Below are positions 28,901 to 62,381 of a DNA stretch of 64,000 nt, piece by piece. The notes under the pieces are model-generated. The model was not told where the DNA came from. It did not search any database and was given only the letters and a program-made list of their open reading frames with translations. This DNA comes from Eledone cirrhosa. Lineage: Eukaryota. Within the stretch, counting starts at the first letter, position 1; each line of letters begins with the position of its first letter. The stretch is from positions 95,869-159,868 of the forward strand of contig CAXHJY010000329.1 of NCBI GenBank assembly GCA_964016885.1, written 5' to 3'. The position numbers and the translations under genes were made by a program.

Positions 28901-31599
28901 CACCAGAGTTCTGGTTTATGCGCCCTGTTATTAGACTATATTATTGGCAGAATGTGTGGAGCGTCAGACAACAGAGTTATGGTTTATACGCACTGTTATT
29001 AGACTATAATATTGGCAGAATGGGTGGAGCGTCAGACACCAGAGTTATGGTTTATACGCCCTGTTATTAGACTATAATATTGGCAGAATGGGTGGAGCGT
29101 CAGACAACAGAGTTATGGTTTATACGCCCTGTTATTAGACTATAATATTAGCAGAATGGGTGGAGCATCAGACACCAGAGTTATGGTTTATACGCCCTGT
29201 TATTAGACTATAATATTGGCAGAATGGGTGGAGCGTCAGACACCAGAGTTATAGTTTATACGCCCTGTTATTAGACTATAATATTGGCAGAATGGGTGGA
29301 GCATCAGACACCAGAGTTATGGTTTATACGCCCTGTTATTAGACTATAATATTGGCAGAATGGGTGGAGCATCAGACAGCAGAGTTATGGTTTATACGCC
29401 CTGTTATTAGACTATAATATTGGCAGAATGGGTGGAGCGTCAGACAACAGAGTTTTGGTTTATACGCCCTGTTATTAGACTATAATATTGGCAGAATGGG
29501 TGGAGCGTCAGACAACAGAGTTATGGTTTATACGCCCTGTTATTAGACTATCATATTGGCAGAATGGGTGGAGCGTCAGACAACAGAGTTATGGTTTATA
29601 CGCCCTGTTATTAGACTATAATATTGGCAGAATGGGTGGAGCGTCAGACACCAGAGTTATGGTTTATACGCCCTGTTATTAGACTATAATATTGGCAGAA
29701 TGGGTGGAGCGTCAGACAACAGAGTTATGGTTTATACGCCCTGTTATTAGACTATAATATTCGCAGAATGGGTGGAGCGTCAGACAACAGAGTTATGGTT
29801 TATACGCCCTGTTATTAGACTATAATATTGGCAGAATGGGTGGAGCGTCAGACAACAGAGTTATGGTTTATACGCTCTGTTATCAGACTATAATATTGGC
29901 AGAATGGGTGGAGCGTCAGACACCAGAGTTATGGTTTATACGCCCTGTTATTAGACTATAATATTGGCAGAATGGGTGGAGCGTCAGACAACAGAGTTAT
30001 GGTTTATACGCCCTGCTATTAGACAATAATATTGGCAGAATGGGTGGAGCGTCACACAACAGAGTTATGGTTTATACGCCCTGTTATTAGACTATAGTAT
30101 TGGCAGAATGGGTGGAGCGTCAGACAACAGAGTTATGGTTTATACGCCCTGTTATTAGACTATAATATCGGCAGAATGGGTGGAGCGTCAGACACCAGAG
30201 TTATGGTTTATACGCCCTGTTATTAGACTATAATATTGGCAGAATGTGTGGAGCGTCAGACAACAGAGTTATGGTTTATACGCCCTGTTATTAGACTATA
30301 ATATTGGCAGAATCTGTGGAGCGTCAGACAAAAGAGTTATGGTTTATACGCCCTGTTATTAGACTATAATATTGGCAGAATGGGTGGAGCGTCAGACACC
30401 AGAGTTATGGTTTATACGCCCTGTTATTAGACTATAATATTGGCAGAATGGGTGGAGCGTCAGACACCAGAGTTATGGTTTATACGCCCTGTTATTAGAC
30501 TATAATATTGGCAGAATGGGTGGAGCGTCAGACAACAGAGTTATGGTTAATACGCCCTGTTATTAGCCTATACTATTGGCAGAATGGGTGGAGTGTCAGA
30601 CAACAGTGTTATGGTTTATACGCCCTGTTATTAGACTATAATATTGGCAGAATGGGTAGAGCGTCAGACAACAGAATTATGGTTTATACGCCCTGTTATT
30701 AGACTATAATATTGGCAGAATTGGTGGAGCGGCAGACAACAGAGATATGGTTTATACGCCCTGTTATTAGACTATAATATTGGCAGAATCTGTGGAGCGT
30801 CAGACAATAGAGTTATGGTTTATACGCCCTGTTATTATACTATAATATTGGCAGAATGGGTGGAGCGTCAGACACCAGAGTTATGGTTTATACGCCCTGT
30901 TATTAGACTATAATATTGGCAGAATGGGTGGAGCGTCAGACACCAGAGTCATGGTTTATACGCCCAGTTATTAGACTATCATATTGGCAGAAAGGGTGGA
31001 GCGTCAGACAACAGAGTCATGGTTTATGCGCCCTGTTATTAGACTATAATATTGGCAGAATGGGTGGAGCGTCAGACACCAGAGATATGGTTTATAAGCC
31101 CTGTTATTAGACTATAATATTGGCAGAATCAGTGGAGCGTCAGACACCAGAGTTATGGTTTATACGCCCTGTTATTAGACTATAATATTGGCAGAATCTG
31201 TGGAGCGTCAGACAACAGAGTTATGGTTTATACGCCCTGTTATTAGACTATAATATTGGCAGAATGGGTGGAGCGTCAGACACCAGAGTTATGGTTTATA
31301 CGCCCTGTTATTAGACTATAATATTGGCAGAATGGGTGGAGCGTTAGACACCAGAGTTATGGTTTATACGCCCTGTTATTAGACTATAATATTGGCAGAA
31401 TGGGTGGAGCGTCAGACAACAGAGTTTTGGTTTATACGCCCTGTTATTAGACTATCATATTGGCAGAATGGGTGGAGCGTCAGACAACAGAGTTATGGTT
31501 TATACGCCCTGTTATTAGACTATAATATTGGCAGAATGGGTGGAGCGTCAGACACCAGAGTTATGGTTTATACGCCCTGTTATTAGACTATAATATTGG

Positions 31600-40500: not shown

Positions 40501-43500
40501 GCAGAATGGGTGGAGCGTCAGACAACAGAGTTATGGTTTATACGCCCTGTTATTAGACTATAATATTGGCAGAATGGGTGGAGCGTCAGACAACAGAGTT
40601 TTGGTTTATACGCCCTGTTATTAGACTATAATATTGGTAGAATGGGTGGAGCGTCAGACAACAGAGTTACGGTTTATACGCCCTGTTATTAGACTATAAT
40701 ATTGGCAGAATGGGTGGAGCGTCAGACACCAGAGTTATGGTTTATACGCCCTGTTATTAGACTATAATATTGGCAGAATGGGTGGAGCGTCAGACAACAG
40801 AGTTATGGTTTATACGCCCTGTTATTAGACTATAATATTGGCAGAATGGGTGGAGCGTCAGACAACAGAGTTTTGGTTTATACGCCCTGTTATTAGACTA
40901 TAATATTGGCAGAATGGGTGGAGCGTCAGACAACAGAGTTATGGTTTATACGCCCTGTTATTAGACTATCATATTGGCAGAATGGGTGGAGCGTCAGACA
41001 ACAGAGTTATGGTTTATACGCCCTGTTATTAGACTATAATATTGGCAGAATGGGTGGAGCGTCAGACACCAGAGTTATGGTTTATACGCCCTGTTATTAG
41101 ACTATAATATTGGCAGAATGGGTGGAGCGTCAGACAACAGAGTTATGGTTTATACGCCCTGTTATTAGACTATAATATTGGCAGAATGGGTGGAGCGTCA
41201 GACAACAGAGTTATGGTTTATACGCCCTGTTATTAGACTATAATATTGGCAGAATGGGTGGAGCGTCAGACAACAGAGTTATGGTTTATACGCTCTGTTA
41301 TCAGACTATAATATTGGCAGAATGGGTGGAGCGTCAGACACCAGAGTTATGGTTTATACGCCCTGTTATTAGACTATAATATTGGCAGAATGGGTGGAGC
41401 GTCAGACAACAGAGTTATGGTTTATACGCCCTGCTATTAGACAATAATATTGGCAGAATGGGTGGAGCGTCACACAACAGAGTTATGGTTTATACGCCCT
41501 GTTATTAGACTATAGTATTGGCAGAATGGGTGGAGCGTCAGACAACAGAGTTATGGTTTATACGCCCTGTTATTAGACTATAATATCGGCAGAATGGGTG
41601 GAGCGTCAGACACCAGAGTTATGGTTTATACGCCCTGTTATTAGACTATAATATTGGCAGAATGGGTGGAGCGTCAGACACCAGAGTTATGGTTTATACG
41701 CCCTGTTATTAGACTATAATATTGGCAGAATGGGTGGAGCATCAGACACCAGAGTTATGGTTTATACGCCCTGTTGTTAGACTATAATATTGGCAGAATG
41801 GGTGGAGCGTCAGACACCAGAGTTATGGTTTATACGCCCTGTTATTAGACTATAATATTGGCAGAATGGGTGGAGCGTCAGACAACAGAGTTATGGTTTA
41901 TACGCCCTGTTATTAGACTATAATATTGGCAGAATGGGTGGAGCGTCAGACAACAGAGTTATGGTTTATACGCCCTGTTATTAGACTATAATATTGGCAG
42001 CATGGGTGGAGCGTCAGACAACAGAGTTATGGTTTATACGCCCTGTTATTAGACTATAATATTGGCAGAATGGGTGGAGCGTCAGACAACAGAGTTATGG
42101 TTTATACGCCCTGTTATTAGACTATAATATTGGCAGAATGGGTGGAGCGTCAGACAACAGAGTTATGGTTTATACGCCCTGTTATTAGACAATAATATTG
42201 GCAGAATGGGTGGAGCGTCAGACAACAGAGTTATGGTTTATACGCCCTGTTATTAGACTATAATATTGGCAGAATGGGTGGAGCGTCAGACAACAGAGTT
42301 ATGGTTTATACGCCCTGTTATTAGACTATAATATTGGCAGAATGGGTGGGGCGTCAGACAACAGAGTTATAGTTTAAACGCCCTGTTATTAGACTATAAT
42401 ATTGGCAGAATGGGTGGGGCGTCTGACAACAGAGTTATGGTTTATACGCCCTGTTATTAGACAATAATATTGGCAGAATGGGTGGGGCGTCTGACAACAG
42501 AGTTATGGTTTATACGCCCTGTTATTAGACAATAATATTGGCAGAATGGGTGGAGCGTCAGACAACAGGTTTATGATTTATACGCCCTGTTATTAGACTA
42601 TAATATTAGCAGAATGGGTGGAGCGTCAGACAACAGATTTATGGTTTATACGCAGTTATTAGACTATAATATTGGCAGAATGGGTGGAGCGTCAGACACC
42701 AGAGTTATGGTTTATACGCCCTGTTATTAGACAATAATATTGGCAAAATGGGTGGAGCGTCAGACACCAGAGTTATGTTTTACACGCCCTGTTATTAGAC
42801 TATAATATTGGCAGAATGGGTGGAGTGTCAGACAACAGTGTTATGGTTTATACGCCCTGTTATTAGACAATAATATTGGCAGAATGGGTGGAGCGTCAGA
42901 CACCAGAGTTATGGTTTATACGCCCTGTTATTAGACAATAATATTGGCAGAATGGGTGGAGTGTCAGACAACAGTGTTATGGTTTATACGCCCTGTTATT
43001 AGACAATAATATTGGCAGAATGGGTGGAGTGTCAGACACCAGAGTTATGGTTTATACGCCCTGTTATTAGACTATAATATTGGCAGAATGGGTGGAGTGT
43101 CAGACAACAGTGTTATGGTTTATACGCCCTGTTATTAGACTATAATATTGGCAGAATGGGTGGAGCGTCAGACACCAGAGTTATGGTTTATACGCCCTGT
43201 TATTAGACAATAATATTGGCAGAATGGGTGGAGCGTCAGACAACAGAGTCATAGTTTATACGCCCTGTTATTAGGCTATAACATTGGCAGAATGGGTGGA
43301 GCGTCAGACACCAGATTTATGGTTTATACGCCCAGTTATTAGACTATAATATTGGCAGAATGGGTGGAGCGTCAGACAACAGAGTTATAGTTTATACGCC
43401 CTGTTATTAGACTATAATATTGGCAGAATGTGTGGAGCGTCAGACAACAGAGTTATGGTTTATACGCCCTGTTATTAGACTATAATATTGGCAGAATCTG

Positions 43501-46500
43501 TGGAGCGTCAGACAAAAGAGTTATGGTTTATACGCCCTGTTATTAGACTATAATATTGGCAGAATGGGTGGAGCGTCAGACAACAGAGTTATGGTTTATA
43601 CGCCCTGTTATTAGACTATAATATTGGCAGAATGGGTGGAGCGTCAGACAACAGAGTTATGGTTTATACGCCCTGTTATTAGACAATAATATTGGCAGAA
43701 TGGGTGGAGCGTCAGACAACAGAGTTATGGTTTATACGCCCTGTTATTAGACTATAATATTGGCAGAATGGGTGGAGCGTCAGACAACAGAGTTATGGTT
43801 TATACGCCCTGTTATTAGACTATAATATTGGCAGAATGGGTGGGGCGTCAGACAACAGAGTTATAGTTTAAACGCCCTGTTATTAGACTATAATATTGGC
43901 AGAATGGGTGGGGCGTCTGACAACAGAGTTATGGTTTATACGCCCTGTTATTATACAATAATATTGGCAGAATGGGTGGGGCGTCTGACAACAGAGTTAT
44001 GGTTTATACGCCCTGTTATTAGACAATAATATTGGCAGAATGGGTGGAGCGTCAGACAACAGGTTTATGATTTATACGCCCTGTTATTAGACTATAATAT
44101 TAGCAGAATGGGTGGAGCGTCAGACAACAGATTTATGGTTTATACGCAGTTATTAGACTATAATATTGGCAGAATGGGTGGAGCGTCAGACACCAGAGTT
44201 ATGGTTTATACGCCCTGTTATTAGACAATAATATTGGCAAAATGGGTGGAGCGTCAGACACCAGAGTTATGTTTTACACGCCCTGTTATTAGACTATAAT
44301 ATTGGCAGAATGGGTGGAGTGTCAGACAACAGTGTTATGGTTTATACGCCCTGTTATTAGACAATAATATTGGCAGAATGGGTGGAGCGTCAGACACCAG
44401 AGTTATGGTTTATACGCCCTGTTATTAGACAATAATATTGGCAGAATGGGTGGAGTGTCAGACAACAGTGTTATGGTTTATACGCCCTGTTATTAGACAA
44501 TAATATTGGCAGAATGGGTGGAGTGTCAGACACCAGAGTTATGGTTTATACGCCCTGTTATTAGACTATAATATTGGCAGAATGGGTGGAGTGTCAGACA
44601 ACAGTGTTATGGTTTATACGCCCTGTTATTAGACTATAATATTGGCAGAATGGGTGGAGCGTCAGACACCAGAGTTATGGTTTATACGCCCTGTTATTAG
44701 ACAATAATATTGGCAGAATGGGTGGAGCGTCAGACAACAGAGTCATAGTTTATACGCCCTGTTATTAGGCTATAACATTGGCAGAATGGGTGGAGCGTCA
44801 GACACCAGATTTATGGTTTATACGCCCAGTTATTAGACTATAATATTGGCAGAATGGGTGGAGCGTCAGACAACAGAGTTATAGTTTATACGCCCTGTTA
44901 TTAGACTATAATATTGGCAGAATGTGTGGAGCGTCAGACAACAGAGTTATGGTTTATACGCCCTGTTATTAGACTATAATATTGGCAGAATCTGTGGAGC
45001 GTCAGACAAAAGAGTTATGGTTTATACGCCCTGTTATTAGACTATAATATTGGCAGAATGGGTGGAGCGTCAGACACCAGAGTTATGGTTTATACGCCCT
45101 GTTATTAGACTATAATATTGGCAGAATGGGTGGAGCGTCAGACACCAGAGTTATGGTTTATACGCCCTGTTATTAGACTATAATATTGGCAGAATGGGTG
45201 GAGCGTCAGACAACAGAGTTATGGTTAATACGCCCTGTTATTAGCCTATACTATTGGCAGAATGGGTGGAGTGTCAGACAACAGTGTTATGGTTTATACG
45301 CCCTGTTATTAGACTATAATATTGGCAGAATGGGTAGAGCGTCAGACAACAGAATTATGGTTTATACGCCCTGTTATTAGACTATAATATTGGCAGAATT
45401 GGTGGAGCGGCAGACAACAGAGATATGGTTTATACGCCCTGTTATTAGACTATAATATTGGCAGAATCTGTGGAGCGTCAGACAATAGAGTTATGGTTTA
45501 TACGCCCTGTTATTATACTATAATATTGGCAGAATGGGTGGAGCGTCAGACACCAGAGTTATGGTTTATACGCCCTGTTATTAGACTATAATATTGGCAG
45601 AATGGGTGGAGCGTCAGACACCAGAGTCATGGTTTATACGCCTAGTTATTAGACTATCATATTGGCAGAAAGGGTGGAGCGTCAGACAACAGAGTCATGG
45701 TTTATGCGCCCTGTTATTAGACTATAATATTGGCAGAATGGGTGGAGCGTCAGACACCAGAGATATGGTTTATAAGCCCTGTTATTAGACTATAATATTG
45801 GCAGAATCAGTGGAGCGTCAGACACCAGAGTTATGGTTTATACGCCCTGTTATTAGACTATAATATTGGCAGAATCTGTGGAGCGTCAGACAACAGAGTT
45901 ATGGTTTATACGCCCTGTTATTAGACTATAATATTGGCAGAATGGGTGGAGCGTCAGACACCAGAGTTATGGTTTATACGCCCTGTTATTAGACTATAAT
46001 ATTGGCAGAATGGGTGGAGCGTTAGACACCAGAGTTATGGTTTATACGCCCTGTTATTAGACTATAATATTGGCAAAATGGGTGGAGCGTCAGACAACAG
46101 AGTCATGGTTTATACGCCCTGTTATTAGACTATAATATTGGCAGAATGGGTGGAGCATCAGACACCAGAGTTATGGTTTATACGCCCTGTTATTAGACTA
46201 TAATATTGGCAGAATGGGTGGAGCGTCAGACAACAGAGTTATGGTTTATGCGCCCTGTTATTAGACTATAATATTGGCAGAATGGGTGGAGCGTCAGACA
46301 CCAGAGTTATGGTTTATACGCCCTATTATTAGACTATAATATTGGCAGAATGGGTGGAGCGTCAGACAAAAGAGTTATGGTTTATACGCCCTGTTATTAG
46401 ACTATAATATTGGCAGAATGGGTGGAGCGTCAGACAACAGAGTTATGGTTTATACGCCCTGTTATTAGACTATAATATTGGCAGAATGGGTGGGGCGTCA

Positions 46501-49500
46501 GACAAAAGAGTTATGGGTTATACGCCCTGTTATTAGACTATAATATTGGCAGAATGGGTGGAGCGTCTGACAACAGAGTTATGGTTTATACGCCCTGTTA
46601 TTAGACTATAATATTGGCAGAATGGGTGGAGCGTCAGACAACAGACTTATGGTTTATACGCCCTGTTATTAGACTATAATATTGGCAGAATGGGTGGAGC
46701 GGCAGACAACAGAGATATGGTTTATACGCCCTGTTATTAGACTGTAATATTGGCAGAATCTGTGGAGCGTCAGACCAGAGAGTTATGGTTTATACGCCCT
46801 GTTATTAGACTATAATATTGGCAGAATGGGTGGAGCGTCAGACACCAGAGTTATGGTTTATACGCCCTGTTATTAGACTATAATATTGGCAGAATGGGTG
46901 GAGTGTCTGGCAACAGTGTTATGGTTTATACGCCCTGTTATTAGACTATAATATTGGCAGATTGGGTGGAGCGTCAGACAACAGAGTTATGGTTTATACG
47001 CCCTGTTATTAGACTATAATATTGGCAGAATCTGTGGAGCGTCAGACAATAGAGTTATGGTTTATACGCCCTGTTATTATACTATAATATTGGCAGAATG
47101 GGTGGAGCGTCAGACACCAGAGTTATGGTTTATACGCCCTGTTATTAGACTATAATATTGGCAGAATGGGTGGAGCGTCAGACACCAGAGTTATGGTTTA
47201 TACGCCCTATTATTAGACTATAATATTGGCAGAATGGGTGGAGCGTCAGACAAAAGAGTTATGGTTTATACGCCCTGTTATTAGACTATAATATTGGCGG
47301 AATGGGTGGAGCGTCAGACAAAAGAGTTATGGTTTATACGCCCTGTTATTAGACTATAATATTGGCAGAATGGGTGGAGCGTCAGACACCAGAGTTATGG
47401 TTTATACGCCCTGTTATTAGACTATAATATTGGCGGAATGGGTGGAGCGTCAGACAAAAGAGTTATGGTTTATACGCCCTGTTATTAGACTATAATATTG
47501 GCAGAATGGGTGGAGCGTCAGACACCAGAGTTATGGTTTATACGCCCTGTTATTAGACTATAATATTGGCGGAATGGGTGGAGCGTCAGACAAAAGAGTT
47601 ATGGTTTATACGCACTGTTATTAGACTATAATATTGGCAGAATGGGTGGAGCGTCAGACAAAAGAGTTATGGTTTATACGCACTGTTATTAGACTATAAT
47701 ATTGGCAGAATGGGTGGAGCGTCAGACACCAGAGTTATGGTTTATACGCCCTGTTATTAGACTATAATATTGGCGGAATGGGTGGAGCGTCAGACAAAAG
47801 AGTTATGGTTTATACGCCCTGTTATTAGACTATAATATTGGCGGAATGGGTGGAGCGTCAGACAAAAGAGTTATGGTTTATACGCACTGTTATTAGACTA
47901 TAATATTGGCAGAATGGGTGGAGCGTCAGACACCAGAGTTATGGTTTATACGCCCTGTTATTAGACTATAATATTGGCGGAATGGGTGGAGCGTCAGACA
48001 AAAGAGTTATGGTTTATACGCCCTGTTATTAGACTATAATATTGGCAGAATGGGTGGAGCGTCAGACACCAGAGTTATGGTTTATACGCCCTGTTATTAG
48101 ACTATAATATTGGCGGAATGGGTGGAGCGTCAGACAAAAGAGTTATGGTTTATACGCACTGTTATTAGACTATAATATTGGCAGAATGGGTGGAGCGTCA
48201 GACACCAGAGTTATGGTTTATACGCCCTGTTATTAGACTATAATATTGGCGGAATGGGTGGAGCGTCAGACAAAAGAGTTATGGTTTATACGCCCTGTTA
48301 TTAGACTATAATATTGGCAGAATGGGTGGAGCGTCAGACACCAGAGTTATGGTTTATACGCCCTGTTATTAGACTATAATATTGGCAGAATGGGTGGAGC
48401 GTCAGACACCAGAGTTATGGTTTATACGCCCTGTTATTAGACTATAATATTGGCGGAATGGGTGGAGCGTCAGACAACAGAGTTATGGTTTATACGCCCT
48501 GTTATTAGACTATAATATTGGCAGAATGGGTGGAGCATCTGACAACAGAGTTATGGTTTATACGCCCTGTTATTAGACTATAATATTGGCAGAATGGGTG
48601 GAGCGTCAGACAACAGACTTATGGTTTATACGCCCTGTTATTAGACTATAATATTGGCAGAATGGGTGGAGCGGCTGACAACAGAGATATGGTTTATACG
48701 CCCTGTTATTAGACTATAATATTGGCAGAATCTGTGGAGCGTCAGACAACAGGTTTATGGTTTATACGCCCTGTTATTAGACTATAATATTGACAGAATG
48801 GGTGGAGCGTCAGACAATAGAGTTATGGTTTATACGCCCTGTTATTAGACTATAATATTGGCAGAATGTGTGGAGCGTCAGACAACAGGTTTATGATTTA
48901 TACGCCCTGTTATTAGACTATAATATTGGCAGAATGGGTGGAGCGTCAGACAACAGAGTTATGGTTTATACGCAGTTATTAGACTATAACATTGGCAAAA
49001 TGGGTGGAGCATCAGACACCAGAGTTATGTTTTATACGCCCTGTTATTAGACTATAATATTGGCAGAATGGGTGGAGCGTCAGGCACCAGAGTTATGGTT
49101 TATACGCCCTGTTATTAGACTATAATATTGGCATAATGGGTGGAGCGTCAGGCACCAGAGTTATGGTTTATACGCCCTATTATTAGACTATAATATTGGC
49201 AGAATGGGTGGAGCGTCAGACAACAGAGTTATGGTTTATACGCCCTGTTATTAGACTATAATATTGGCAGAATGGGTGGAGCGTCAGACAACAGAGTTAT
49301 GGTTTATTCGCCCTGTTATTAGACTATAATATTGGCAGAATGGGTGGAGCATCAGACAACAGAGTTATGGTTTATACGCCCTGTTATTAGACTATAATAT
49401 TGGCAGAATGGGTGGAGCGTCAGACAACAGAGTTATGGTTTATACGCCCTGTTATTAGACTATAATATTGGCAGAATGGGTGGAGCGTCAGACACCAGAG

Positions 49501-50250
49501 TTATGGTTTATACGCCTTGTTATTAGACTATGATATTGGCAGAATCTGTGGAGCGTCAGACAACAGAGATATGGTTTATACGCCCTGTTATTAGACTATA
49601 ATATTGGCAGAATGGGTGGAGCGTCAGACAACAGAGTTATGGTTTATACACCCTGTTATTAGACTATAATATTGGCAGAATGGGTGGAGCGTCAGACAAC
49701 AGGGTTATGGTTTATACGCCCTGTTATTAGACTATCATATTGGCAGAATGGGTGGAGCGTCAGACAACAGAGTTATGGTTTATACGCACTGTTATTAGAC
49801 TATAATATTGGCAGAATGGGTGGAGCGTCAGACAACAAAGTTATGGTTTATACGCCCTGTTATTAGACTATAATATTGGCATAATGGGTGGAGCGTCAGA
49901 CAACAGAGTTATGGTTTATACGCACTGTTATTAGACTATAATATTGGCAGAATCAGTGGAGCGTCAGACACCAGAGTTATGGTTTATACGCCCTGTTATT
50001 AGACTATAATATTGGCCGAATGGGTGGAGCGTCAGACAACAGTGTTATGGTTTATAGGCCCTGTTATTAGACTATAATATTGGCAGAATGGGTGGAGCGT
50101 CAGACAACAGAGTTATGGTTTATACGCCCTGTTATTAGACTATAATATTGGCAGAATGGGTGGAGCGTCAGACACCAGAGTTATGGTTTATACGCCCTGT
50201 TATTAGACTATAATATTGGCAGAATGGGTGGAGCGTCAGACAACAGAGTT
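31600..50250 (+). repeat. ~9.2-9.9 kb higher-order tandem duplication with a nested 1494-bp duplication
   Basis: Offsets are 9174 (31732/40906, 36012/45186, 36420/45594) and 9854 = 9174+680 (39014/48868, 39818/49672). A nested 1494-bp (22-mer minus 2 bp) repeat is marked by deletion variants at 33480/34974 and 42654/44148. Boundaries are approximate. Confidence 0.88.
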
Positions 50251-51372
50251 ATGGTTTATACGACCTGTTATTAGACTATATTATTGGCAGAATGGGTGGA
50301 GCGTCAGACACCAGAGTTATGGTTTATACGCCCTGTTATTAGACTATAATATTGGCAGAATGGGTGGAGCGGCAGACAACAGAGTTATGGTTTATACGCC
50401 CTGTTATTAGACTATAATATTGGCAGAATGGGTGGAGCGTCAGACAACAGTGTTATGGTTTATACGCCCTGTTATTAGACTATAATATTGGTAGAATGGG
50501 TGGAGCGTCAGACAACAGAGTTACGGTTTATACGCCCTGTTATTAGACTATAATATTGGCAGAATGGGTGGAGCGTCAGACAACAGAGTTATGGTTTATA
50601 CGCCCTGTTATTAGACTATAATATTGGCAGAATGGGTGGAGCGTCAGACAACAGAGTTATGGTTTATACGCCCTGTTATTAGACTATCATATTGGCAGAA
50701 TGGGTGGAGCGTCAGACAACAGAGTTATGGTTTATACGCACTGTTATTAGACTATAATATTGGCATAATGGGTGGAGCGTCAGACAACAGAGTTATGGTT
50801 TATACGCACTGTTATTAGACTATAATATTGGCAGAATCAGTGGAGCGTCAGACACCAGAGTTATGGTTTATACGCCCTGTTATTAGACTATAATATTGGC
50901 CGAATGGGTGGAGCGTCAGACAACAGTGTTATGGTTTATACGCCCTGTTATTAGACTATAATATTGGCAGAATGGGTGGAGCGTCAGACACCAGAGTTAT
51001 GGTTTATACGCCCTGTTATTAGACTATAATATTGGCCGAATGGGTGGAGCGTCAGACAACAGTGTTATGGTTTATACGCCCTGTTATTAGACTATAATAT
51101 TGGCAAAATGGGTGGAGCGTCAGACAACAGAGTTATGGTTTATACGCCCTGTTATTAGACTATAATATTGGCAGAATGGGTGGAGCGTCAGACACCAGAG
51201 TTATGGTTTATACGCCCTGTTATTAGACTATAATATGGGCAGAATGGGTGGAGCGGCAGACAACAGTGTTATGGTTTATACGCCCTGTTATTAGACTATA
51301 ATATTGGCAAAATGGGTGGAGCGTCAGACACCAGAGTTATGGTTTATACGCCCTGTTATTAGACTATAATAT

Positions 51373-51556
51373 TGGCAGAATGGGTGGAGCGTCAGACACC
51401 ATGCCTTGCAGCATAGGAGTTATGGTCCTTTATGTTCTGAGTTCAAATCCCGCCAAGGTTAACTTTGCCTTTCATCCTTACGGGGTCGATAAAATAAAGT
51501 ACCAGTACATTACTGGTACTTTGCACGAATTGTGCCAAAAGTAGATACAATTATTA
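51373..51556 (+). mobile_element. tRNA-derived SINE (family A) forming the right terminus of the satellite
   Basis: A box TGGCAGAATGG at 51373-51383 and B box GTTCAAATCC at 51441-51450. The body AACTTTGCCTTTCATCCTTACGGGGTCGATAAAATAAAGTACCAG is shared with copies at 52796, 60806 and 62208(-). The ATT-rich tail grades into (GTT)n. Confidence 0.9.
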
Positions 51557-51819
51557 TGATTATTGTTGTTGCTGTTATTGTTGTCGTTACTGTTGTTGTT
51601 GTCGTTCTTTTTGTTGCTGTTGTTGTCGATGTTGTTGTTGTTGTTGTCGATGTTACTGTAGTTGCTGTTGTGTCATTGTTGTTGTTGCTGTGCTGTTGTT
51701 GTCGTTGTTGTTGTTGCTGTGCTGCTGATGTTGTTGTCTTTGTTGTTGTTGCTATGCTGTTGTTGTTGTTGTTGTCGTTGTTGTTGTTGTTGTCGTTGTT
51801 GTTGTTGCTGTGCTCTTGT

Positions 51820-51853
<34 letters not shown>

Positions 51854-51980
51854 GTCGTTGTCGCTGTTGTTGTCGTTGTTGTTGTTGCTGTGCTGTTGTT
51901 GTTGTTGTTGTTGTCATTGTTGTTGTTGTTATTGTCGTTGTTGTTGCTGTGCTGTTGTTGTTATTGTTGTTATTGTTGTT

Positions 51981-52013
<33 letters not shown>

Positions 52014-52041
52014 ATTGTTGTCGTTGCTGGTGTTGCTGTGC

Positions 52042-52080
<39 letters not shown>

Positions 52081-52085
52081 GCTGC

Positions 52086-52124
<39 letters not shown>

Positions 52125-52141
52125 CTTTGTTATCGCAGTGC

Positions 52142-52190
<49 letters not shown>

Positions 52191-52580
52191 GCTGTTGTTG
52201 TTGTTTTCATTGTCGTCGATGTTGTCGTTGTTGTTGTTGTTGATTTTTTGTCGTTGTTGTTGCTGTTGTTGTTGTTGTTGTTGTTGTGGTGGTGGTGGTG
52301 GTGGTGGTGTTGTTGGCGAGTACGGGAAGATGGTGGTTATAGTGGTGGTCGTTGTTGTCGTTCTTGTTGCTGTTGTTGTTGTTATTGTGGTGGTGGTACA
52401 GGAGTGTGTGGGGGCGTATGGTCGTCGTCGTCGTCGTCATTGTCATCGTTGTTGTTTGTGTTGTGGTAGTGGTGGTGATGATGATGTTTTGTTGTTTTTG
52501 CTGTCGTTGTTGTTGTTGGTGGTGGTAGAGGAGGTGTGTTGGGACGTATGGTCGTCGTCATCGTCATCGTTGTTGTTGTT
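51557..52580. repeat. Compound (GTT)n/(GCT)/(GTC)/(GGT) trinucleotide microsatellite, ~1 kb
   Basis: Seen directly. It explains the poly-V/L/C/T/Q ORFs at 51510-52721. Confidence 0.97.
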
Positions 52581-52795: not shown

Positions 52796-52979
52796 CGGTG
52801 AATTGGCAGTATCGGTAGAGGGTCGGACGCCATGGTTTCACGCAAAGAGTTACGGCCCTTTATGATATGATTTCAAATCCCGCCGAGGTTAAATTTGCCT
52901 TTCATCCATACGGGGTTGATAAAATAAAGTACCAGTAATGTGCTGGATAATTGCTGGCCTTGTGCCAAACGTAGAAATA
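52796..52979 (+). mobile_element. tRNA-derived SINE (family A), near full length, with 9-bp TSD
   Basis: TGGCAGTATCGG A box, TTTCAAATCC degenerate B box and the shared central body. Flanked by the direct repeat ATTATCTTT at 52787-52795 and 52980-52988. Confidence 0.88.
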
Positions 52980-53196: not shown

Positions 53197-53225
53197 CACC
53201 TATACACACACACACACGCACACAT

Positions 53226-53257
<32 letters not shown>

Positions 53258-53365
53258 TTATTATAAGTACAGATTAAAGTTTAAGCAAAGAAGCGCTTTT
53301 TCACCCTTTTACGGGATCTTCTGAAATTCGAGCCATCCTCGGATTTTAGTCTTCACATTTGTTAT

Positions 53366-53368
<3 letters not shown>

Positions 53369-53422
<54 letters not shown>
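53369..53422. repeat. (TA)n microsatellite
   Basis: Pure TA run seen directly. Confidence 0.97.
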
Positions 53423-53424
<2 letters not shown>

Positions 53425-53783
53425 AATATAAATTAGCGAGAATCGTATTTCCGCTTTGGAATTCGCGAAAAACGACTTCCGAGATGTGTGGCAAGCGCTC
53501 AATAATTCTGAGGAACCAGAGCTACAACATACGTTAAAGGCCAAACATACAGAGACGATGGTTAAACCGTCATCCGCAAAGCCATAGAAACGACCAAGTA
53601 ATTCGGGTCAAACAAATAAAAAAATATGTGATTGAAAAAATTAACCCGGACCCCTGGATGGTTGGTAAAATCCAGCATTTGGGTTTCTGCGACTCCTAAA
53701 TCAAGTACTGTCCGCTTAGACAAATAATGTTAGGCTTCTGGTAAGATGATTGAACAAGGAGGTCACTTTCTCAACAGCTTTTA

Positions 53784-53784
<1 letters not shown>

Positions 53785-53841
<57 letters not shown>
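53785..53841. repeat. (TA)n microsatellite
   Basis: Pure TA run seen directly. Confidence 0.97.
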
Positions 53842-53845
<4 letters not shown>

Positions 53846-54236
53846 TCAGTATTTTGAATCTGTCTGCAGAATTCTCTAGACCTTTGTCACTTAGTAGAAC
53901 CTTAATGACTTTAGCTTTTAAAGAATCTCCCTTTTCTTTAATTCTATCGACCATGACTGATCCCCCACTGACTTTATAGACATCTGTTAGCTTAAGAGAA
54001 ACTTATTGACAAGGAATGGTATGCCATCCGGAACCTGTTTATAGAATTCTGTCTGCCTTTGTTACTCTAAAAACATAAATAAATATAAATAAAAATAAAA
54101 ATAAACTATAGCTTTGTAGAATTAGCTTTTAATGAATTCCCTTTTCTATCAACCAATGACCTGCACCCATCCCACTCCCCACCCTCTCCTACCACTTGTA
54201 GAGACCTATAAATACCATATTTATTTTTTGATACCC

Positions 54237-54287
54237 AGATTCCTGATGATTTCTAATGAATGAAACAGTTCTAGTCCTGTAGAATCT
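54237..54287 (+). ncRNA. Type I hammerhead ribozyme motif
   Basis: Stem I AGATTC/GAATCT. Core CTGATGA at 54243-54249. Stem II TTC-taat-GAA with U.U at its base. GAAA at 54262-54265. Stem III ACAG/CTGT. GUA cleavage triplet ending at 54281. Confidence 0.8.
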
Positions 54288-54299
54288 CTTCTATATTAA

Positions 54300-54459
<160 letters not shown>

Positions 54460-55579
54460 CGAAGGAATCGTGGTAAGAAACCAGATTGACATAAGCACCA
54501 AAGTACTCAATACTTAGGGTAGTAGAGTGGGTAATAGGAACAAGTATGACCCGGACGGCAGAGCTCGACGGCTATTTCTGGACTAAATAAGAATTTTTAG
54601 CCTGGTAAATAAATAACCGAACTTCTCAGGGGGTATTACTTTATATGGGAAAATAGTAATTGTCGAGAGGATTCGTCAAAAATTTGTTGTAAAGACAGAT
54701 CATGGCATTTGGTGGGAGGTAGGGTGGCTGAATTTGCCTGTAGAACAAAGAGGGAGTGGGGAAAACCCAGTGAAGCGTAGAAATTGAAATCTATACAGCA
54801 GATTCTAAGGATAGTGAATAAAAGGTCGAAAAAAGTGTACTGGAGAAGAGGGGGGGGGGGAGTTGGAAGAATTGGTAAATCGAAATGGAGTAAAAAAAAA
54901 ACAAAAACATTATAAAAATAAAGAAAGAAATATATAAAAACAATTTCTGGTTACTACATTTCTACAATCACCAAATCTCTCATTGGTATTGCTAAGCTAT
55001 AGAAAAGTTTAATAGGTGGAGAATGGGAAAAATACTAAATACAAGATTGTAGTGAAAGAATTTTATAAAGCCGGCTTTACAGGGAGTTTAACACCGCTGC
55101 TATAGATAGTTAGTAATCAGCCAATGCTATCTTACAATGACAGGTTAATAAGTTGAGAACAAAAATAGTAAAATACTATTACAAAAATATTAATACTAAT
55201 ACAAAAATACTAATACAAAAATACCACTAAGAAATTTAGAAACCATAGAAATGGAGCAGCAACCAAAAGGAAAAAAATTAGTGGGGTCTAACACATCTGC
55301 TATAAAAAGCGTAATCGGCCAATTCTATCTTAAAATTAGGGGGGAGGGAGTACTGAGGCTACAGAGGACCGCTGGGCTGCATGGGGATAGGCGAAAGGTG
55401 AAAAAAAGAGACGAGGAAGGAGATCTGGGGTGGAAGGACTAGGAAGAGATGGGGGAAGAAGGAAACATAGAGGAAAAGATAAAAAAGTTACGTCTACCTT
55501 TGTAAGCAGGGTTTACCCCTTACAAAATCGGCAAGTGGGGTATCAGCCCTTGTCTACCCCCCCCCCCCCCCGCCGGGGT

Positions 55580-56997
55580 CATTAAGGGGTTTGAGGGCGA
55601 GGTAAGTCCTACGCAATCTGTGTTTGCATGCGGTTACCAGTTCGTCTTTCTTATTTATGAGTTGGTCCTTCGAAAACAGCATTTGTAATGTTTCCTACCA
55701 GCATAAGTTACACGGACGGCGTCCTCACGTGTAAGAGTTAGCTCTGGACAGTAAGCTCCAAGTGAGATTGTAGGTTATGTTATTATCTTTGACGTCCCAG
55801 ATCTGGCCCGAAAGTGTAGTGGCATATCGCCGGGCCGGGTTTCGGAAAGTGTGTCGGTGTTGGTAGAGCCGGGTCTTGAAGTCACAAGCGGTTAATCCTA
55901 TATAAGCTTTGTTGGAGGTGTCCGTCCTCACGTTGCACTGGTAGATCACATTACGATCTCGGCATCTCTTGTTGAGGGGGCACATGGATCTATCAGGACA
56001 GTTACACCTCCTGGTCGGCTCTCCACTGGTGTCTAGATTATTTCTTCCATAGTGGTTAAGTTTTTTGTTGTTAGAGGAGACGATGTTTTGTGCGAAGTTA
56101 GGGGTGGTGCTGTAGGAGAGTTTGATTGTGTTTTTGTTGATTATATTGGGGTTGCGGTGTTGTAGTGAGAAGTGTTTTTCGAGGAGCCTAAAGAAGATTT
56201 TCCCGATAGGTGTTGTCGCCTAGGCATTGTGGGGAGGATTGAACCACGTTACGTTGCGTGAGCGGCGGTGTCGCCTGCTGGTTCCGCTAATGGAAGCTGG
56301 ATAATAGGATATTTCCTCCCTGAAGCCACTCCGCCTGAGGGCCTGGTTGTAATAAGGCTCATGTTCGTCGAATATCTGCTCATTAGCGGACAAACGAGAT
56401 ATGCGGGCGGAGATGTTTTTAACCAGGTTATTTGTGATGTTTCTAGGATCGTTCTATCGGCGGTGGATGTAATGCAGGTTGTCGTTTGGTGTCTTGTATG
56501 GGTAGTACAGATCATTTTCGAGGTTAACGGTGACGTCCAGGAAGTTTACTCGGGTTAGCGACGTTTGTAGGATTATTCTAAATTCCCAGTCCCTGAAGAA
56601 GCTGATTAGTTGTTTACGGACACGGTCTGTACTACTGGGGTTGTACCCTCTGAGGGTGAGGAGCCCATCATCGCGGTACAATCCACCGCCGAATGCAGGA
56701 AACATTTCGGTGAGTTTAAATAGTAGGAACAATCCTATAAGATCTGTGACCTCAGCCGAATCCGTTGCGCGCATACTGACGTCGAAGGAGGAGTCAGGAG
56801 CTCTCTTTATCCATTTGGAGTTGTCGAAAAGTAGGACTGTTTTCCTGGCGTGGATGATGATATTTCTTTCCTGGTCGGTGATGGGCGTGAGTGTTTCGGC
56901 AAAGTCCAAGGCGGCCGTAAGGAGCGGTAAGGTAATTGATGCATAGTAACTCTCTATGTCAAACTGGATGAATTTTGTGTCTCGTTTGTCCTCCATA
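55580..56997 (-). pseudogene. Disrupted PLE ORF: reverse transcriptase + GIY-YIG endonuclease
   Basis: RT motifs FDIESYYASI, GLYRDDGL and VNFLDVTVNL (ORF 56454-57062). Cys-rich linker and GIY-YIG NVIYQC...AYIGLTACDFKTRLYQH (ORF 55725-55985). C-terminal LINKKDELVTACKH near 55620-55665. Broken by frameshifts and stops. The first ~22 aa of the ORF-track protein come from the inverted repeat. Confidence 0.9.
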
Positions 56998-57356
56998 TTA
57001 GCAATACCAATGAGACATTTGGTGATTGTAGAAATGGAGTAGTAACCAGAAATTGTTTTCATATAATTATTACGTTATTTTTATAATGGTTTTTTTTTCT
57101 CCCTTTCGATTTACCTATACTTCCAACTCCCCCACCCTCCTCTTCTCCAGTACACCTTTTTCGACCTTTTATACTCTATTCTTAGAATCTGCTGTATAGA
57201 TTTCAATTTCAACGCTTCACTGGGTTTCCCCCACTCCCTCTTTGTTCTACCGGCAAGTTCGGCCATTCCTACCCCCCACCAAATGCCATAATCTGTCTTT
57301 ACAACAAATTTTTGACCAATCCTCTCGACAATAACTATCTTTCCATATAAGGTAAT

Positions 57357-57452
57357 ACCTCCTGAGAAGTTCGGCTATTTATTTACCAGGCTAAAAATCC
57401 TTATTTAGTCCAGAAATAGCCGTCGAAACGGCTTCAGCTCTGCCGTCGGGGT
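57357..57452 (+). ncRNA. Hammerhead-like motif with variant core (CUGAGAA) in the inverted terminal copy of PLE1
   Basis: Stem I ACCTC/GGGGT. CTGAGAA at 57362-57368. Long stem II CGGCTATTT/AAATAGCCG. GAAA at 57425-57428. Stem III ACGGC/GCCGT. GUC triplet ending at 57447. G8 of the consensus core is A. Confidence 0.55.
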
Positions 57453-57462
57453 GATAGTTGTT

Positions 57463-57497
<35 letters not shown>

Positions 57498-57684
57498 ATA
57501 CTTGGGGAGGGTCATATTTGTGTAATATTGCCAGAATTAATAACAGAACACACTCACTGTTTGGTTGGTTTTGGCTTTTCGCTTCTGTGTCCTTTATATC
57601 GGTAATCTAATTTATTCGGTCCTCAATGTTGCCATTGACTGACCAACGGTCAAAAATAATACAGATACAATATAGACACAAACA

Positions 57685-57742
57685 CATATATATAGTTTAT
57701 CAAACTTCTTTCGTTGCACATCTGCAACATCGTCAGTGGTGC
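57685..57742 (-). ncRNA. Degenerate hammerhead in the PLE2 3' UTR
   Basis: Minus strand: CTGACGA, then t-GTTGCA-gatg-TGCAAC, GAAA, gaa, GTTT-gat-AAAC, TA. Core and stem II are intact, there are 3 extra nt before stem III, and the 3' strand of stem I is not recognisable. Confidence 0.45.
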
Positions 57743-58001
57743 TATTGTTTCCTCCCGTTGCATTGTATTTTCTACGCCATCTTTATTTAGTCTGTTTATA
57801 TATTTATTTATTTGTTTATTTTATTTTGTCTTCTTTGCGCATGCGTTTGCGTGTGTGTATAGTGTTCTGTTTGATGTGTGTTTGTGATTGGGTGAGTGTG
57901 TATTGGTTAATGTATTCTATCTTTACTAGTGTGTGTTTATATGTGTTTGTCGTTATTGTGCTTGTGTATGTATTTATTTATTTATTTATCTATTTATTTA
58001 T

Positions 58002-60205
58002 TTATACTTCTCTTAGGTCAGTGTTGCTTGTTTGGGTGTTGTTGTTATTCCATTCATTCTTTCTGTTTAGCCTTGGCCTTCTAAGTTCTATTTCGCTGGC
58101 CTCTCTGATTTGCCTATCTGCTGGGTCATTTCTATCTTTAGATATTATTCTAACTTCTATGTTGTCTATGTTACCGTTGTGTTGTCTGGCATGTTCGTAT
58201 AGTACTGAACCGTTTTTTCGTCCTTTTATTTCCCCCCAGTGTTGGTCTATCCTTTCAACTATGCTACGAGCCGTCTCGCCTATGTATGTTATTGTCATGT
58301 TTCTGCAAGTATCCTTCGTACATCTTATGCTATAGACTACGTTTCTCGTTTTACAGTTTATTCGGGGGTTTACTCTACATATGATGCATTTCCTATTAGC
58401 ATAATGGGTTTTCTTAAAAGGGTAGGTTTTGCATATCAGGGATTTTATGGTGGTTCCTGGCTTTTCTACCACCTTAATCTTTAAGTGGGTCTTTCTCAGG
58501 GCCTTTCTACACTGGTTAGCTAATTTCCCTCCAGGAGTAGCGTCCACAAACATGACATTCTGGTATCTCTGTTTGTCGTACCATGAGGTGGCTTTCCCTA
58601 TCTTATGTCTAGCCCTTTCTAAGCTATTCCATTGGTTGTAGCCAGAGAACTGCATGCGGTTGATGAAGTGTTGGATGTGTCTTTCCATTTCTGTTGGGTC
58701 GCACATGCGGGACACGTTCTTCATCACTCGTACCAAATCTGCGATCAGAATATTAAACTTAGCACCACTGGACATTGCTGAGTTTTTGAGTATCAGGTAT
58801 TTGGAGGCGATGGGTTTAGCATAGTGTGAGTTGAGAATTTGGGCTCTCTCGTCTATAGTGTTAATCCAGAGTTCCGTGTCTAATACAGGTAGTCTATTGT
58901 TAGGGTGTTTGGAAGGGTAGTCGATAGTTACAGTTATACTCTGGTGTATGGAATTAGCTATCTGCTGGATGCTTTCCATTGTGCTACGTTCTAAATCAAA
59001 CTTGTTAGTGCTCTCTAGTCGGGATGTTCTTATAGCTATATTGATATCGTCTACGTAACGAGAGTACACGATGAGGTCTATGGAGCTCTCATTAAGGAGA
59101 TCTTTAAGTCTCCTTTCCCACCATACCATAAAAAGGTTGGCAACATCACCAGCTATGCTGACGCCAATGGCTGGTCCCTCATTTTGGGTGTAGATCTTCT
59201 CGTTGAACTTGAATATGTGGCCCTTTAGGGTAGTTTTGATACTAGCCCCTGTTGCATGTGCGACCATTTTTCTTACATGATCATTGTTTTTGGGGGTCCG
59301 TATAGCTTTGGTCCACCCAATCCACCTTCCCATGGGAGTCTTTTTAGCCATTGAGGTTATGGTGGGGCGTCTACCTCTTATGGGTCTACTGGGGCAGAAA
59401 CGTCAAAGGTCATGGCTGTCTAGGTAGTCAGTGTCGTAGATAAGTCTAAGTAGGAGGCCCAGTTCGTCTGTGTCGACGTCGCAGAACTCTACCTCACTCT
59501 CAATGATCATCTCCACACATTTTTCCACAGCAAAATCAATGTTAATGGATGGGTACAGTGATACCACATCCATGCTGCCTATTATGCAGTTGGATAGGTT
59601 TCTGTTTTTGTTGCACTCACTGATTCTGCTGAGGACGTCCTCTGTACTGTCTCATACATCTGGGGACATCTTGATTATGGGGCGTATAACCATTGAGAGG
59701 AAGTAGGAGATCCTGTACTTGCTAGCTATATTTGCTCCGCATACGGGTCTTGTTGGTGGTCCTGTTGTCGGGTCGGCGATTGTCTTGTGGTCTTTGCGGA
59801 GCCCATACAAGCGTGGTATGCCATTTTTATTAGACGCCTGGAAGTTGTTGGCAGTGCGTCTGCTTGGCCTTAGGATGGCGGTCCACATCATCATGTGAGC
59901 GTTGAGGATTTTCCCTCTCCCATCATGTGTTTGCTGTGCAATTTCGCTCGTGTTGGTGATGTGGGGTTGCATAGCCTTGATGTAGCTCGGCATGCTATCT
60001 TTTGACATCCTACCGGACTTATCCGTGTGTAGACATACTACCTCACCATCCCTTGTGCACTGCTTGAGGCTAACCAAGCCTTCTACACGTTTCCTCCCAA
60101 GTTGTTGGGCCTCTGGTCTGCTCTGTCCCTTAGTGTACCTGTCTACTATTTGTCTAATCTTATTTCTAGCTATGGTGAACTGTGCCTCTGTCTCGTCATC
60201 TATTT
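58002..60205 (-). pseudogene. Disrupted PLE ORF: reverse transcriptase + GIY-YIG endonuclease
   Basis: PRLYGLRKDHK and RPVCGA (ORF 59652-60077). GSMDVVSLYPSI near 59545-59580. QNEGPAIG, YSRYVDD, LPVLD and NVVYSIRC...YIGETARSIVERIDQH...LNRKNE (ORF 58002-59351). Split by frameshifts and 5' truncated. Confidence 0.92.
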
Positions 60206-60470
60206 GTTGTGTCTATTTTGTATCTGTATTATTTTTGACCGTTGGTCAGTCAATGGCAACATTGAGGACCGAATAAATTAGATTACCGATATAAAGGACA
60301 CATAAAGCGAAAAGCGAAAACCAACCAAACACTGAGTGTGTTCTGTTATTAATTCTGGCAATATTACACAAATATGACCCCCCCCCCCCCCCCCCCAAGT
60401 ATAACAATATTTGTTTCGACACACAATTTCATATCAAAAACCTCGCAAAACTATATATATATATATATAT

Positions 60471-60527
60471 GAGTCCAGAAATAGCCGTCTAAACGGCTTG
60501 AGCTCTGCCGTCGGGGTCATACTTTTT

Positions 60528-60530
<3 letters not shown>
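60471..60530 (+). mobile_element. 60-bp terminal fragment of the PLE1 family embedded in (TA)n
   Basis: AGTCCAGAAATAGCCGTC.AAACGGCTT.AGCTCTGCCGTCGGGGT.ATA...TTCCT matches 57407-57465 and ends at the same base before (AT)n. Confidence 0.85.
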
Positions 60531-60596
<66 letters not shown>

Positions 60597-60773
60597 ATAC
60601 ATACATACATAATGTATGGAAAGCGAGGAGTGCAGTTTGAAAATTAAAATACAAATAGATGGCTTCGCCGTAAGATTTGACAAAGTAGGGTAGTCGATAA
60701 AAAACCCACTGAACGGGAAACCAATGTATATTAATCACAGATGTGTGCTGATACCCATTGTTTTCATTCAGTG

Positions 60774-60954
60774 GGTTTATACGCCCTGTTATTAGACTAT
60801 ATTATTGGCAGTATCGGTGGAGCGTCAGACACCATGCTTTGCAGCATGGAGTTATGGCTTTTTACGTTCTGAGTGCAAATCCCACCGAGGTTAACTTTGC
60901 CTTTCATCCTTACGGGGACGATAAAATCAAGTACCAGTAAAGCACTTGGGTATT
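60774..60954 (+). mobile_element. Single unamplified satellite-precursor copy: 5' flank + family A SINE (3' truncated)
   Basis: GGTTTATACGCCCTGTTATTAGACTATATTATTGGCAGTATCGGTGGAGCGTCAGACACCA (60774-60834) matches the monomer. It is followed by the same SINE body as at 51401 and preceded by non-satellite sequence. Confidence 0.92.
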
Positions 60955-60957
60955 TGC

Positions 60958-61003
60958 TAAGCTCTGATGATCACCAACAGTGTGAAACAGATTTGTCAGT
61001 TTA
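60958..61003 (+). ncRNA. Type I minimal hammerhead ribozyme (retrozyme A copy 1)
   Basis: TAAGCT-CTGATGA-tCACcaacaGTGt-GAAA-CAgattT-GTC-AGTTTA. Predicted cleavage after 60997. Confidence 0.8.
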
Positions 61004-61269
61004 TCCCCTTTGTTTGTTGAAAAAAGAAGTGACACAGTCACTGCTTTAAAACAATAGCGGAAGGTCTTCAAAATGCTTTTAATTAAGCATACAGTGTATT
61101 GCCAAATACACTATATATACATTCATATATATATCGCTATTTCAGAGCACCAATCCTAATTTTCAATTTTTGCTGGACCGGCAATTGCTCTGTATAATCA
61201 GTTCCTGAATATTACTGGCATTCTATCAGAATCCAGCATCTATAATTTTCAACAAACATCGGCGAGTGC

Positions 61270-61315
61270 TAAGCTCTGATGATCACCAACGGTGTGAAAC
61301 AGATCTGTCAGCTTA
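61270..61315 (+). ncRNA. Type I minimal hammerhead ribozyme (retrozyme A copy 2)
   Basis: TAAGCT-CTGATGA-tCACCaacGGTGt-GAAA-CAGATCT-GTC-AGCTTA. Perfect 6-bp stem I and palindromic stem III ACAGATCTGT. Predicted cleavage after 61309. Confidence 0.88.
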
Positions 61316-61595
61316 TCTCCCTTTGTTTGTTGAAAAAAGAAGTAAGTGACATAGTTACTACTTTAAATTAATAGCGCAAGGTCTTCAAAATGTTTTTAAT
61401 TAAGCATACAGTATACTGCCAAATATACTGTACATATATTCATGTATACATCTCTATTTCAGAGCACCAATCCTAATATATATATATATGAAAAGAGTGA
61501 GGTCCCCCACCGGCTGAGCTCCGGCCGTTTCGACAGCTAGATTGAATATTCTGGTGCGTTATGGTGCACTTGGTATCTCACCACACTCTCTTTGT

Positions 61596-61627
<32 letters not shown>

Positions 61628-62142: not shown

Positions 62143-62207
62143 ACTTGTGATTCCCAGAAACATCAGTGTCTGCACTTCTGTTCACATGCCAACACAAGAG
62201 CAATAAT

Positions 62208-62381
62208 TGTTTCTACGTTAGGCACAAGGCCAGCAATTACCCAGTGTATTACTGGTACGTCAGGATGAAAGGCAAAGTTAACCTCGGCGGGATTTGAACT
62301 CAAAATGGCAAGGGCCGTAACTCTATGCGTCAAAACATGGCATCCGACACTCTACCAATACTGCCAATCCACCGCCAGATT
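62208..62381 (-). mobile_element. Family A SINE inserted in retrozyme B, 14-bp TSD
   Basis: Minus strand has A box TGGCAGTATTGG, B box GTTCAAATCC and the shared body with an internal deletion. TSD ACAAGAGCAATAAT at 62194-62207 and 62382-62395. The empty site is visible in the sister copies (~62065-62078 inverted, ~62822-62835). Confidence 0.93.

Follow-up and report, generated by a model that had tools for sequence, protein, structure and literature searches.

A single SINE-bearing copy near a 68-bp satellite array of Eledone cirrhosa very probably shows the pre-satellite layout

Introduction

The early steps of satellite birth are usually lost. The closest described systems are the SINE-derived satellites (sSat) of squamates, reported by Vassetzky et al. 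in 2023 (PMC10702118). As characterised in the main text of that paper, the unit corresponds to part of a SINE, a longer terminal unit reaches the SINE end, and the arrays are long and homogeneous. The gecko satellite sSat3Gja2 is composed of the 5' part of a SINE and approximately 30 nt of unknown origin. No unamplified sister copy is described for the squamate satellites in the available part of PMC10702118. A molluscan satellite with a SINE segment has likewise been reported, namely the Nin-SINE-linked PcH-sat of the limpet Patella (PMC11121367). According to the available part of that report, PcH-sat differs from the repeat studied here in its 179-bp unit, in containing the 3' part of the SINE, in having no A/B boxes, and in that the SINE was matched from another species; no array edge or precursor locus is described in that part. 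No SINE-derived satellite of a cephalopod was found in the literature searched. For Octopus vulgaris, the available part of the source gives 80 annotated satellite families, and the present repeat may already be catalogued among them.

In this study, a stretch of 64,000 nt of Eledone cirrhosa (GCA_964016885.1, contig CAXHJY010000329.1, positions 95,869 to 159,868 of the forward strand; hereafter the window) was analysed. It contains a 68-bp satellite with the same anatomy as the gecko sSat3Gja2. As in the squamate sSat, the unit comes from part of a SINE and is shorter than it, there are at least four middle monomers (the array has 756 copies), a longer terminal unit reaches the SINE end (51341-51560, at the right end), and the parent SINE is dispersed, with 2 free copies in 12.6 kb. 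Compared with the squamate sSat as presented in the main text of PMC10702118, the SINE and the phylum are different, the present monomer is internally deleted, and a separate single copy places the extra 30 nt in the arm of a predicted upstream hairpin. The present array bears on the question, raised in the same text, of whether such arrays are confined to squamates, the limpet case being already known from the available part of PMC11121367.

Results

The array, its last unit, and the free SINE copies used as outgroups were located as follows.

1..51398, + strand: satellite array, period 68, 756 copies, left edge beyond the window
51341..51560, + strand: terminal unit of the array, composed of flank, SINE head, undeleted segment (51402-51416), body, and 3' tail
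51563..52580, + strand: (TTG)n-rich microsatellite abutting the SINE tail; the tandem-repeat call covers 51563-52287
52796..52979, + strand: free SINE (outgroup) with a 9-bp target-site duplication (52787-52795, 52980-52988)
62208..62381, - strand: free SINE (outgroup); target-site duplication of 14 bp, internal gap of 17 nt

The array has 755 copy intervals, 744 of which are 68 bp, with a mean of 1.76 differences from the majority sequence. The column counts given below refer to the 744 full-length monomers; the 11 intervals of other length were excluded. The monomer consists of 30 nt of flank (positions 1-30), 31 nt of SINE head (31-61), and 7 nt (62-68). The head is without its first 8-9 nt, and the last 7 nt are SINE sequence from past an internal deletion, which measures 14 nt by the state at 60774 and 15 nt by the state at the array end. 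In total, 38 of the 68 nt align to the head of the free SINE copies. A 24-nt flank probe gave 748 matches in the window and none in 100 shuffles. The ends of the deletion share a microhomology of 1 nt at most, and no remnant of the deleted segment was found in 1-51390 with 2 edits allowed. Where the monomer closes, the GG of the SINE body joins the GG that opens the flank, an overlap that extends to GGT at the array end.

The 744 monomers comprise 145 distinct haplotypes, and their pairwise divergence is 4.4% (mean 2.7 differences over 61 nt), a value that dates the last homogenisation only and not the birth of the array. Large, recent block duplications were detected at lags of 94, 135, 145, and 385 monomers. 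These multi-kilobase duplications are direct evidence for amplification by unequal exchange.

Two further observations were made within the array. The lag-135 block extends from about 31.3-38.1 kb onto 40.5-47.3 kb and includes 40 consecutive identical monomers. A 2-nt flank deletion, usable as a lineage marker, is common to nine 66-bp monomers (10559, 16949, 20143, 33469, 34963, 39109, 42643, 44137, and 48963).

The array's own last unit retains an intact SINE with its full tail, a fact absent from the initial annotation of this DNA. The window contains the undeleted junction GACACCATG at just two places, 51395 and 60828. The (TTG)n microsatellite at 51563-52580 probably grew out of the SINE tail of the terminal unit.

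The target-site duplications of the two free copies indicate that the repeat is a retroposed SINE-like family. In the 12.6 kb of non-array DNA, nhmmer detected no further SINE copy. ARAGORN and Rfam gave no tRNA match, and the other matches were microsatellite-driven or sub-threshold, so that no tRNA or Rfam family was assigned. With general Pol III box patterns, the array end matches for both the A-box and the B-box, 62208-62381 for the B-box only, and 60774 and 52796 strictly for neither. The Pol III A-box pattern is matched by 642 of the 744 monomers; a B-box-like motif is added by the terminal unit only (51440-51451). Judged from these motifs, the array edge could be transcribable, whereas the copy at 60774 carries a B-box substitution. 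The SINE family presumably resembles octopus SINEs.

The region of the single copy contains the following features.

60612..60773, + strand: upstream sequence U, a candidate counterpart of what precedes the first unit of the array
60687..60787, no strand: predicted imperfect fold-back hairpin, whose right arm extends 14 nt into the monomer flank
60774..60803, + strand: flank, 29/30 identical to the monomer majority
60804..60834, + strand: 5'-truncated SINE head, without the first 8-9 nt present in free copies
60835..60848, + strand: 14-nt segment, without a match (2 edits allowed) in the array upstream of its last unit
60849..60958, + strand: SINE body with a substituted B-box-like motif, ending in a 4-nt overlap (60955-60958) with the next feature
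60955..61477, + strand: hammerhead-type tandem repeat, 1.7 units of 312 bp, 35% GC, 89% alike, ending at (AT)n

The initial annotation had reported a lone flank, SINE head, and undeleted SINE body at 60774. This structure was recovered as described, and it is the only monomer match outside the array. All motifs and positions quoted there were correct. GGCAGTATCGG, given as the state of the free SINE, occurs exactly twice (52805 and 60807), and GGCAGAATGGG, given as the state of the satellite, occurs 600 times. ACTATATTATT, attributed to a minority of monomers, was found at 5005, 11395, 23699, 28935, and 50275, and also at 60796. The distance from the array end (51398) to the single copy (60774) is 9.4 kb. 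BLAST aligned 51341-51524 of the array end with 60774-60957 at 89% over 186 bp. The single copy tracks the SINE to about 60958 only, and the SINE tail is missing, which the annotation had not mentioned. In its first 61 nt, it has 4 differences from the monomer majority (positions 29, 39, 42, and 59); at positions 39, 42, and 59, all within 60804-60834, its bases are those of the free SINE at 52796.

The similarity between the single copy and the array breaks off exactly at the SINE/flank junction of the monomer, and the preceding 8 nt all mismatch. A fragment broken off the array would be expected to end in this phase in about 3 of 68 cases. The features of a sister locus are present at 60774: homology starts from the monomer junction, the DNA upstream is not array DNA, and the deleted segment is kept.

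Sequence U was aligned with the hammerhead unit, the spacer, the right side, and the first 700 bp of the array, and all eight alignments were non-significant. As coding DNA, U has stops in the single translated frame and no tblastn match with 118 proteins. The hairpin at 60687-60787 has a z score of -4.43, and 1 of 200 shuffles was equally stable. Folding across the junction gave -18.9 kcal/mol, compared with -10.2 for the left part alone. The true phase of pairing was the best of 68, and shuffled flanks were equally good in 2 of 500 cases. These phase results suggest that U and the flank likely formed one piece before the array existed.

The ends of the hairpin (60686-60788) look like hAT-type transposon termini. 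The hairpin was also considered as a MITE with target duplication, and this was rejected, as a target-site duplication (5 nt or more) was not found on its two sides.

The segment 60835-60848 lies inside a perfect 7-bp hairpin (60832-60849) predicted in the single copy only (z -2.88; 2 of 200 shuffles); the z scores for the array end and the free SINE were 0.14 and 0.08. This hairpin was noticed post hoc, and its relevance to the deletion is suggestive.

Over 60804-60940, the single copy and the array end differ at 14 columns, of which 6 are derived at the array end, 6 are derived at 60774, and 2 are unpolarised. Polarity was taken from the two outgroup SINE copies; two of the six private changes of 60774 were judged on one outgroup. 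The identity of the single copy was 124/137 (90.5%) with the array end, and 113/137 and 100/120 with the free SINEs. Seven columns are common to the single copy and the array end against both free SINEs. The tree of SINE bodies that the initial annotation had proposed agrees with this: 60774 groups with the array end against the two free SINEs (support 98/97), and the branches of the pair are 0.063 and 0.051. If the octopus rate of 0.0036 per million years in the available part of PMC13282606 applies, the split of the pair would be about 14 million years old (7-24).

The initial annotation had also called the single copy a 'fossil' of the satellite. The data do not agree with this term: private changes are equal on the two sides, the tail of 60774 is lost, and the SINE at the array end is whole. 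Going by these base states, the copy at 60774 is a separately mutated sister, and its reading as an unchanged ancestor is rejected.

The state ACTATATTATT (T29) had been offered as support for a precursor. It occurs in 5 of the 744 monomers, which is ordinary background: 57 of the 204 possible substitutions are found in at least 5 monomers, and for A/T transversions the figure is 10 of 40. As a retained ancestral state T29 was rejected; it is present in 2 of the 145 haplotypes, and of the three variants at this position T is the least frequent. Block duplication of a single haplotype accounts for four of the five T29 monomers, and the remaining one is independent. T29 gives the junction a likeness to the target duplications of the free SINEs, which start with ATTAT, a weak hint over only 5-6 AT-rich bases.

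Among the 744 monomers, none has two of T29, T39, and C42, and 49 have one. C59 is found in 273 of the 744 and is common to the single copy, the array end, and both free SINEs, a credible case of the ancestral state surviving as a minority. C42 is found in 44 of the 744 and never with G43 (35 CT, 9 CA, 0 CG); for C42 as a relic, parsimony is about equal either way. CpG sites elsewhere in the monomer are mostly kept, unlike 42-43. The array base at position 39 is the usual base of the tRNA A-box, and because of this fit the polarity of position 39 is insecure.

The DNA between the two loci is dominated by the following features.

53201..60611, no strand: nest of (TA)n-bounded modules holding two Penelope-like elements with inverted terminal repeats
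54534..57467, no strand: Penelope-like element, about 2.9 kb, more decayed, with inverted 477-bp repeats (88%)
57490..60410, - strand: Penelope-like element, about 2.9 kb, with inverted 214-bp repeats

The spacer is 9,052 bp and contains 7,411 bp of the (TA)n nest, 1,021 bp of microsatellite, and 196 bp of free SINE (about 8.6 of 9.05 kb). Since the spacer largely consists of these components, the two loci may have started much closer. Only about 5.8 kb of the nest is recognised as Penelope-like, and not all of its modules need be mobile. The nearest named homologue of the reverse transcriptase in the spacer is from O. vulgaris (59% identical), the first of 118 matches. In 57490-60410, the reverse transcriptase/endonuclease frame has 2 stops and shows 63% identity over 682 aa with a protein of O. 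vulgaris. The match of this element to Pfam RVT_1 (E=0.005) falls short of the model cut-off and no GIY-YIG model matched; 1 of the 118 homologues is labelled GIY-YIG domain-containing, and a GIY-YIG motif was seen by eye. The more decayed element has a GIY-YIG-like frame at 55725-56219 (E 1.6e-4) and, by eye only, a reverse transcriptase-like frame at 56454-57074. An 87-bp direct repeat (94%, partly TA tract; 57407-57493 and 60472-60558) flanks the element at 57490-60410, as a target duplication of unusual length would.

A type I hammerhead-like motif was found in each unit of the repeat at 60955-61477 (60958-61003 and 61270-61315). The search used our own descriptor of the type I core with three helices. 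Both tandem units match it, and 4 loci in 51400-64000 were found, compared with 0 of 500 full-length Markov controls. Of the modelled pairs, 13/14 and 14/14 are standard, and where the two units differ in helices I and III, a G-C pair stands against a G-U pair. No Rfam hammerhead was found in 60955-61477 at E<=1 or E<=10. The hammerhead is not the minimum-energy structure; the predicted folds differ (z 0.5-0.7). In sequence, the repeat appears retrozyme-like or Penelope-repeat-like. Its overlap of 4 nt with the SINE body is compatible with loss of the SINE tail to a 5'-truncated insertion and also with a template switch.

Discussion

According to the initial annotation, the copy at 60774 keeps the layout that preceded tandemisation. 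This claim was upheld by the junction-sharp similarity, the hairpin that continues into the flank, and the tree pairing with the array end, and we believe that the copy very probably shows the pre-satellite layout. The 14-nt segment kept at 60774 and its free-SINE bases at positions 39 and 42 point the same way. It is also reasonably probable, though less certain, that 60774-60958 is a sister paralogue of the satellite's seed, formed by a short local duplication that was followed by tandemisation and amplification in one of the copies.

The course of events below builds on the observed anatomy, identities, junction positions, and block duplications; its order, mechanism, and locality are what we infer from them. 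A SINE without its first 8-9 nt would have come to lie beside the right arm of a fold-back of about 100 bp. This hairpin and SINE unit would have been duplicated nearby, about 10% divergence ago. In one copy, the GG(T) of the SINE body would have been joined to the GG(T) of the hairpin arm through slippage or microhomology repair, and the hairpin-forming piece of 14-15 nt may have been skipped in the joining, giving the 68-bp unit. Repeated unequal exchange would then have expanded this unit, with the intact SINE remaining as the last one. The other copy would have stayed single and kept mutating, and its tail may have been lost at the 4-nt microhomology with the hammerhead-type repeat. Later insertions and microsatellite growth would have separated the two copies. 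Because the sister copy and the array's last unit both survive, both breakpoints of the 68-bp monomer are readable within 2-3 bases, each beside a predicted hairpin. The flank of an insertion site is a possible origin for extra sequence of the type of the approximately 30 nt in gecko SINE satellites. No function is implied for the satellite or the single copy.

The proximity of the two loci would be partly chance if the hairpin, flank, and SINE were a dispersed composite, either mobilised by Penelope or retrozyme machinery or itself a fold-back DNA element. In that case the array would derive from one member and 60774 would be another, and the pre-satellite layout would still be shown. The module 60612-61477 fits such a mobile composite, as it is bordered on both sides by dinucleotide tracts, like the neighbouring mobile modules, and ends in two hammerhead-type units. 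In the available part of PMC8557442, Penelope-like elements make partial tandems and some clades prefer (TA)n; in that of PMC13282606, SINEs account for 11.6% of the O. vulgaris genome. Moreover, the two loci share no homology beyond flank and SINE within the window, including downstream of both SINEs, and this absence of common flanking DNA speaks for a dispersed element. However, the ends are unlike, a full SINE tail at one locus and a hammerhead repeat at the other, so that the two are not one uniform element, and the hairpin is without a target-site duplication (5 nt or more). A Pol III SINE transcript would not include a flank that lies well upstream of the A-box, which also counts against a composite. 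Chance proximity would require a family of the order of 10,000 copies or more: in a 2.8 Gb genome, the probability of a dispersed copy within 10 kb is 0.7% for 1,000 copies, 7% for 10,000, and 51% for 100,000. Prokaryotic genomes gave 0 matches, which is uninformative for an animal repeat. Overall, we consider a dispersed composite unlikely, though far from negligible.

Local duplication could also have taken place after tandemisation had begun, with 60774 losing its internal units through recombination between the first and last unit. The outcome would be the same anatomy, U with flank and undeleted SINE, and the intra-array divergence does not speak against an old array, given what it dates. 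Such a collapse requires an extra event, no deleted-type unit is left at 60774, and, as 60774 is without the array bases at positions 39 and 42, the collapse would have to predate their spread; we regard it as improbable. Copying of the array's terminal unit to 60774 after amplification would account for the proximity and for a head that is nearer to the array end (58/61) than the body is (95/106). Yet 6 changes of the array end would have to revert to the free-SINE state, and a breakpoint exactly at the monomer junction together with a chance continuation of the hairpin (2/500) would be required. The nearest monomer is 3/61 away and the mean is 4.6, against 2.7 among monomers. An escaped terminal unit is therefore hardly credible. 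The preferred reading thus remains that of a sister of the seed, duplicated before tandemisation.

The repeat at 60955-61477 resembles retrozymes and the pseudo-LTRs of Penelope elements in its low-GC tandem units of about 300 bp with type I hammerhead-like cores, as far as the available parts of PMC7229834, bioRxiv 10.64898/2026.07.22.740005, and PMC8557442 describe them. At the base of helix II there is a U-U mismatch, a further likeness, as described for axolotl HHR_Amex2 in the part of the source available. In contrast to non-LTR retrozymes, it has 1.7 units, its 5' end is fused to a SINE body, and it has no Rfam hammerhead match. The module 60612-61477 could be a capture product, in which Penelope reverse transcriptase acting on hammerhead retrozyme RNA would have switched template at 60955-60958 onto the hairpin and SINE, the product being pasted into a (TA)n tract. 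We hold this to be doubtful. If true, retrozyme machinery would copy and spread satellite seeds, and 60774 would be the frozen pre-amplification layout of the seed.

Other hammerhead-like cores are located at 54243, 62134 (- strand), and 62765 (+ strand). Downstream of the module, a 33-bp minisatellite has three copies at 62592-62691. The cores at 62134 and 62765 lie within an inverted pair of 258-bp repeats (61890-62145 and 62754-63006), whose arms enclose a free SINE.
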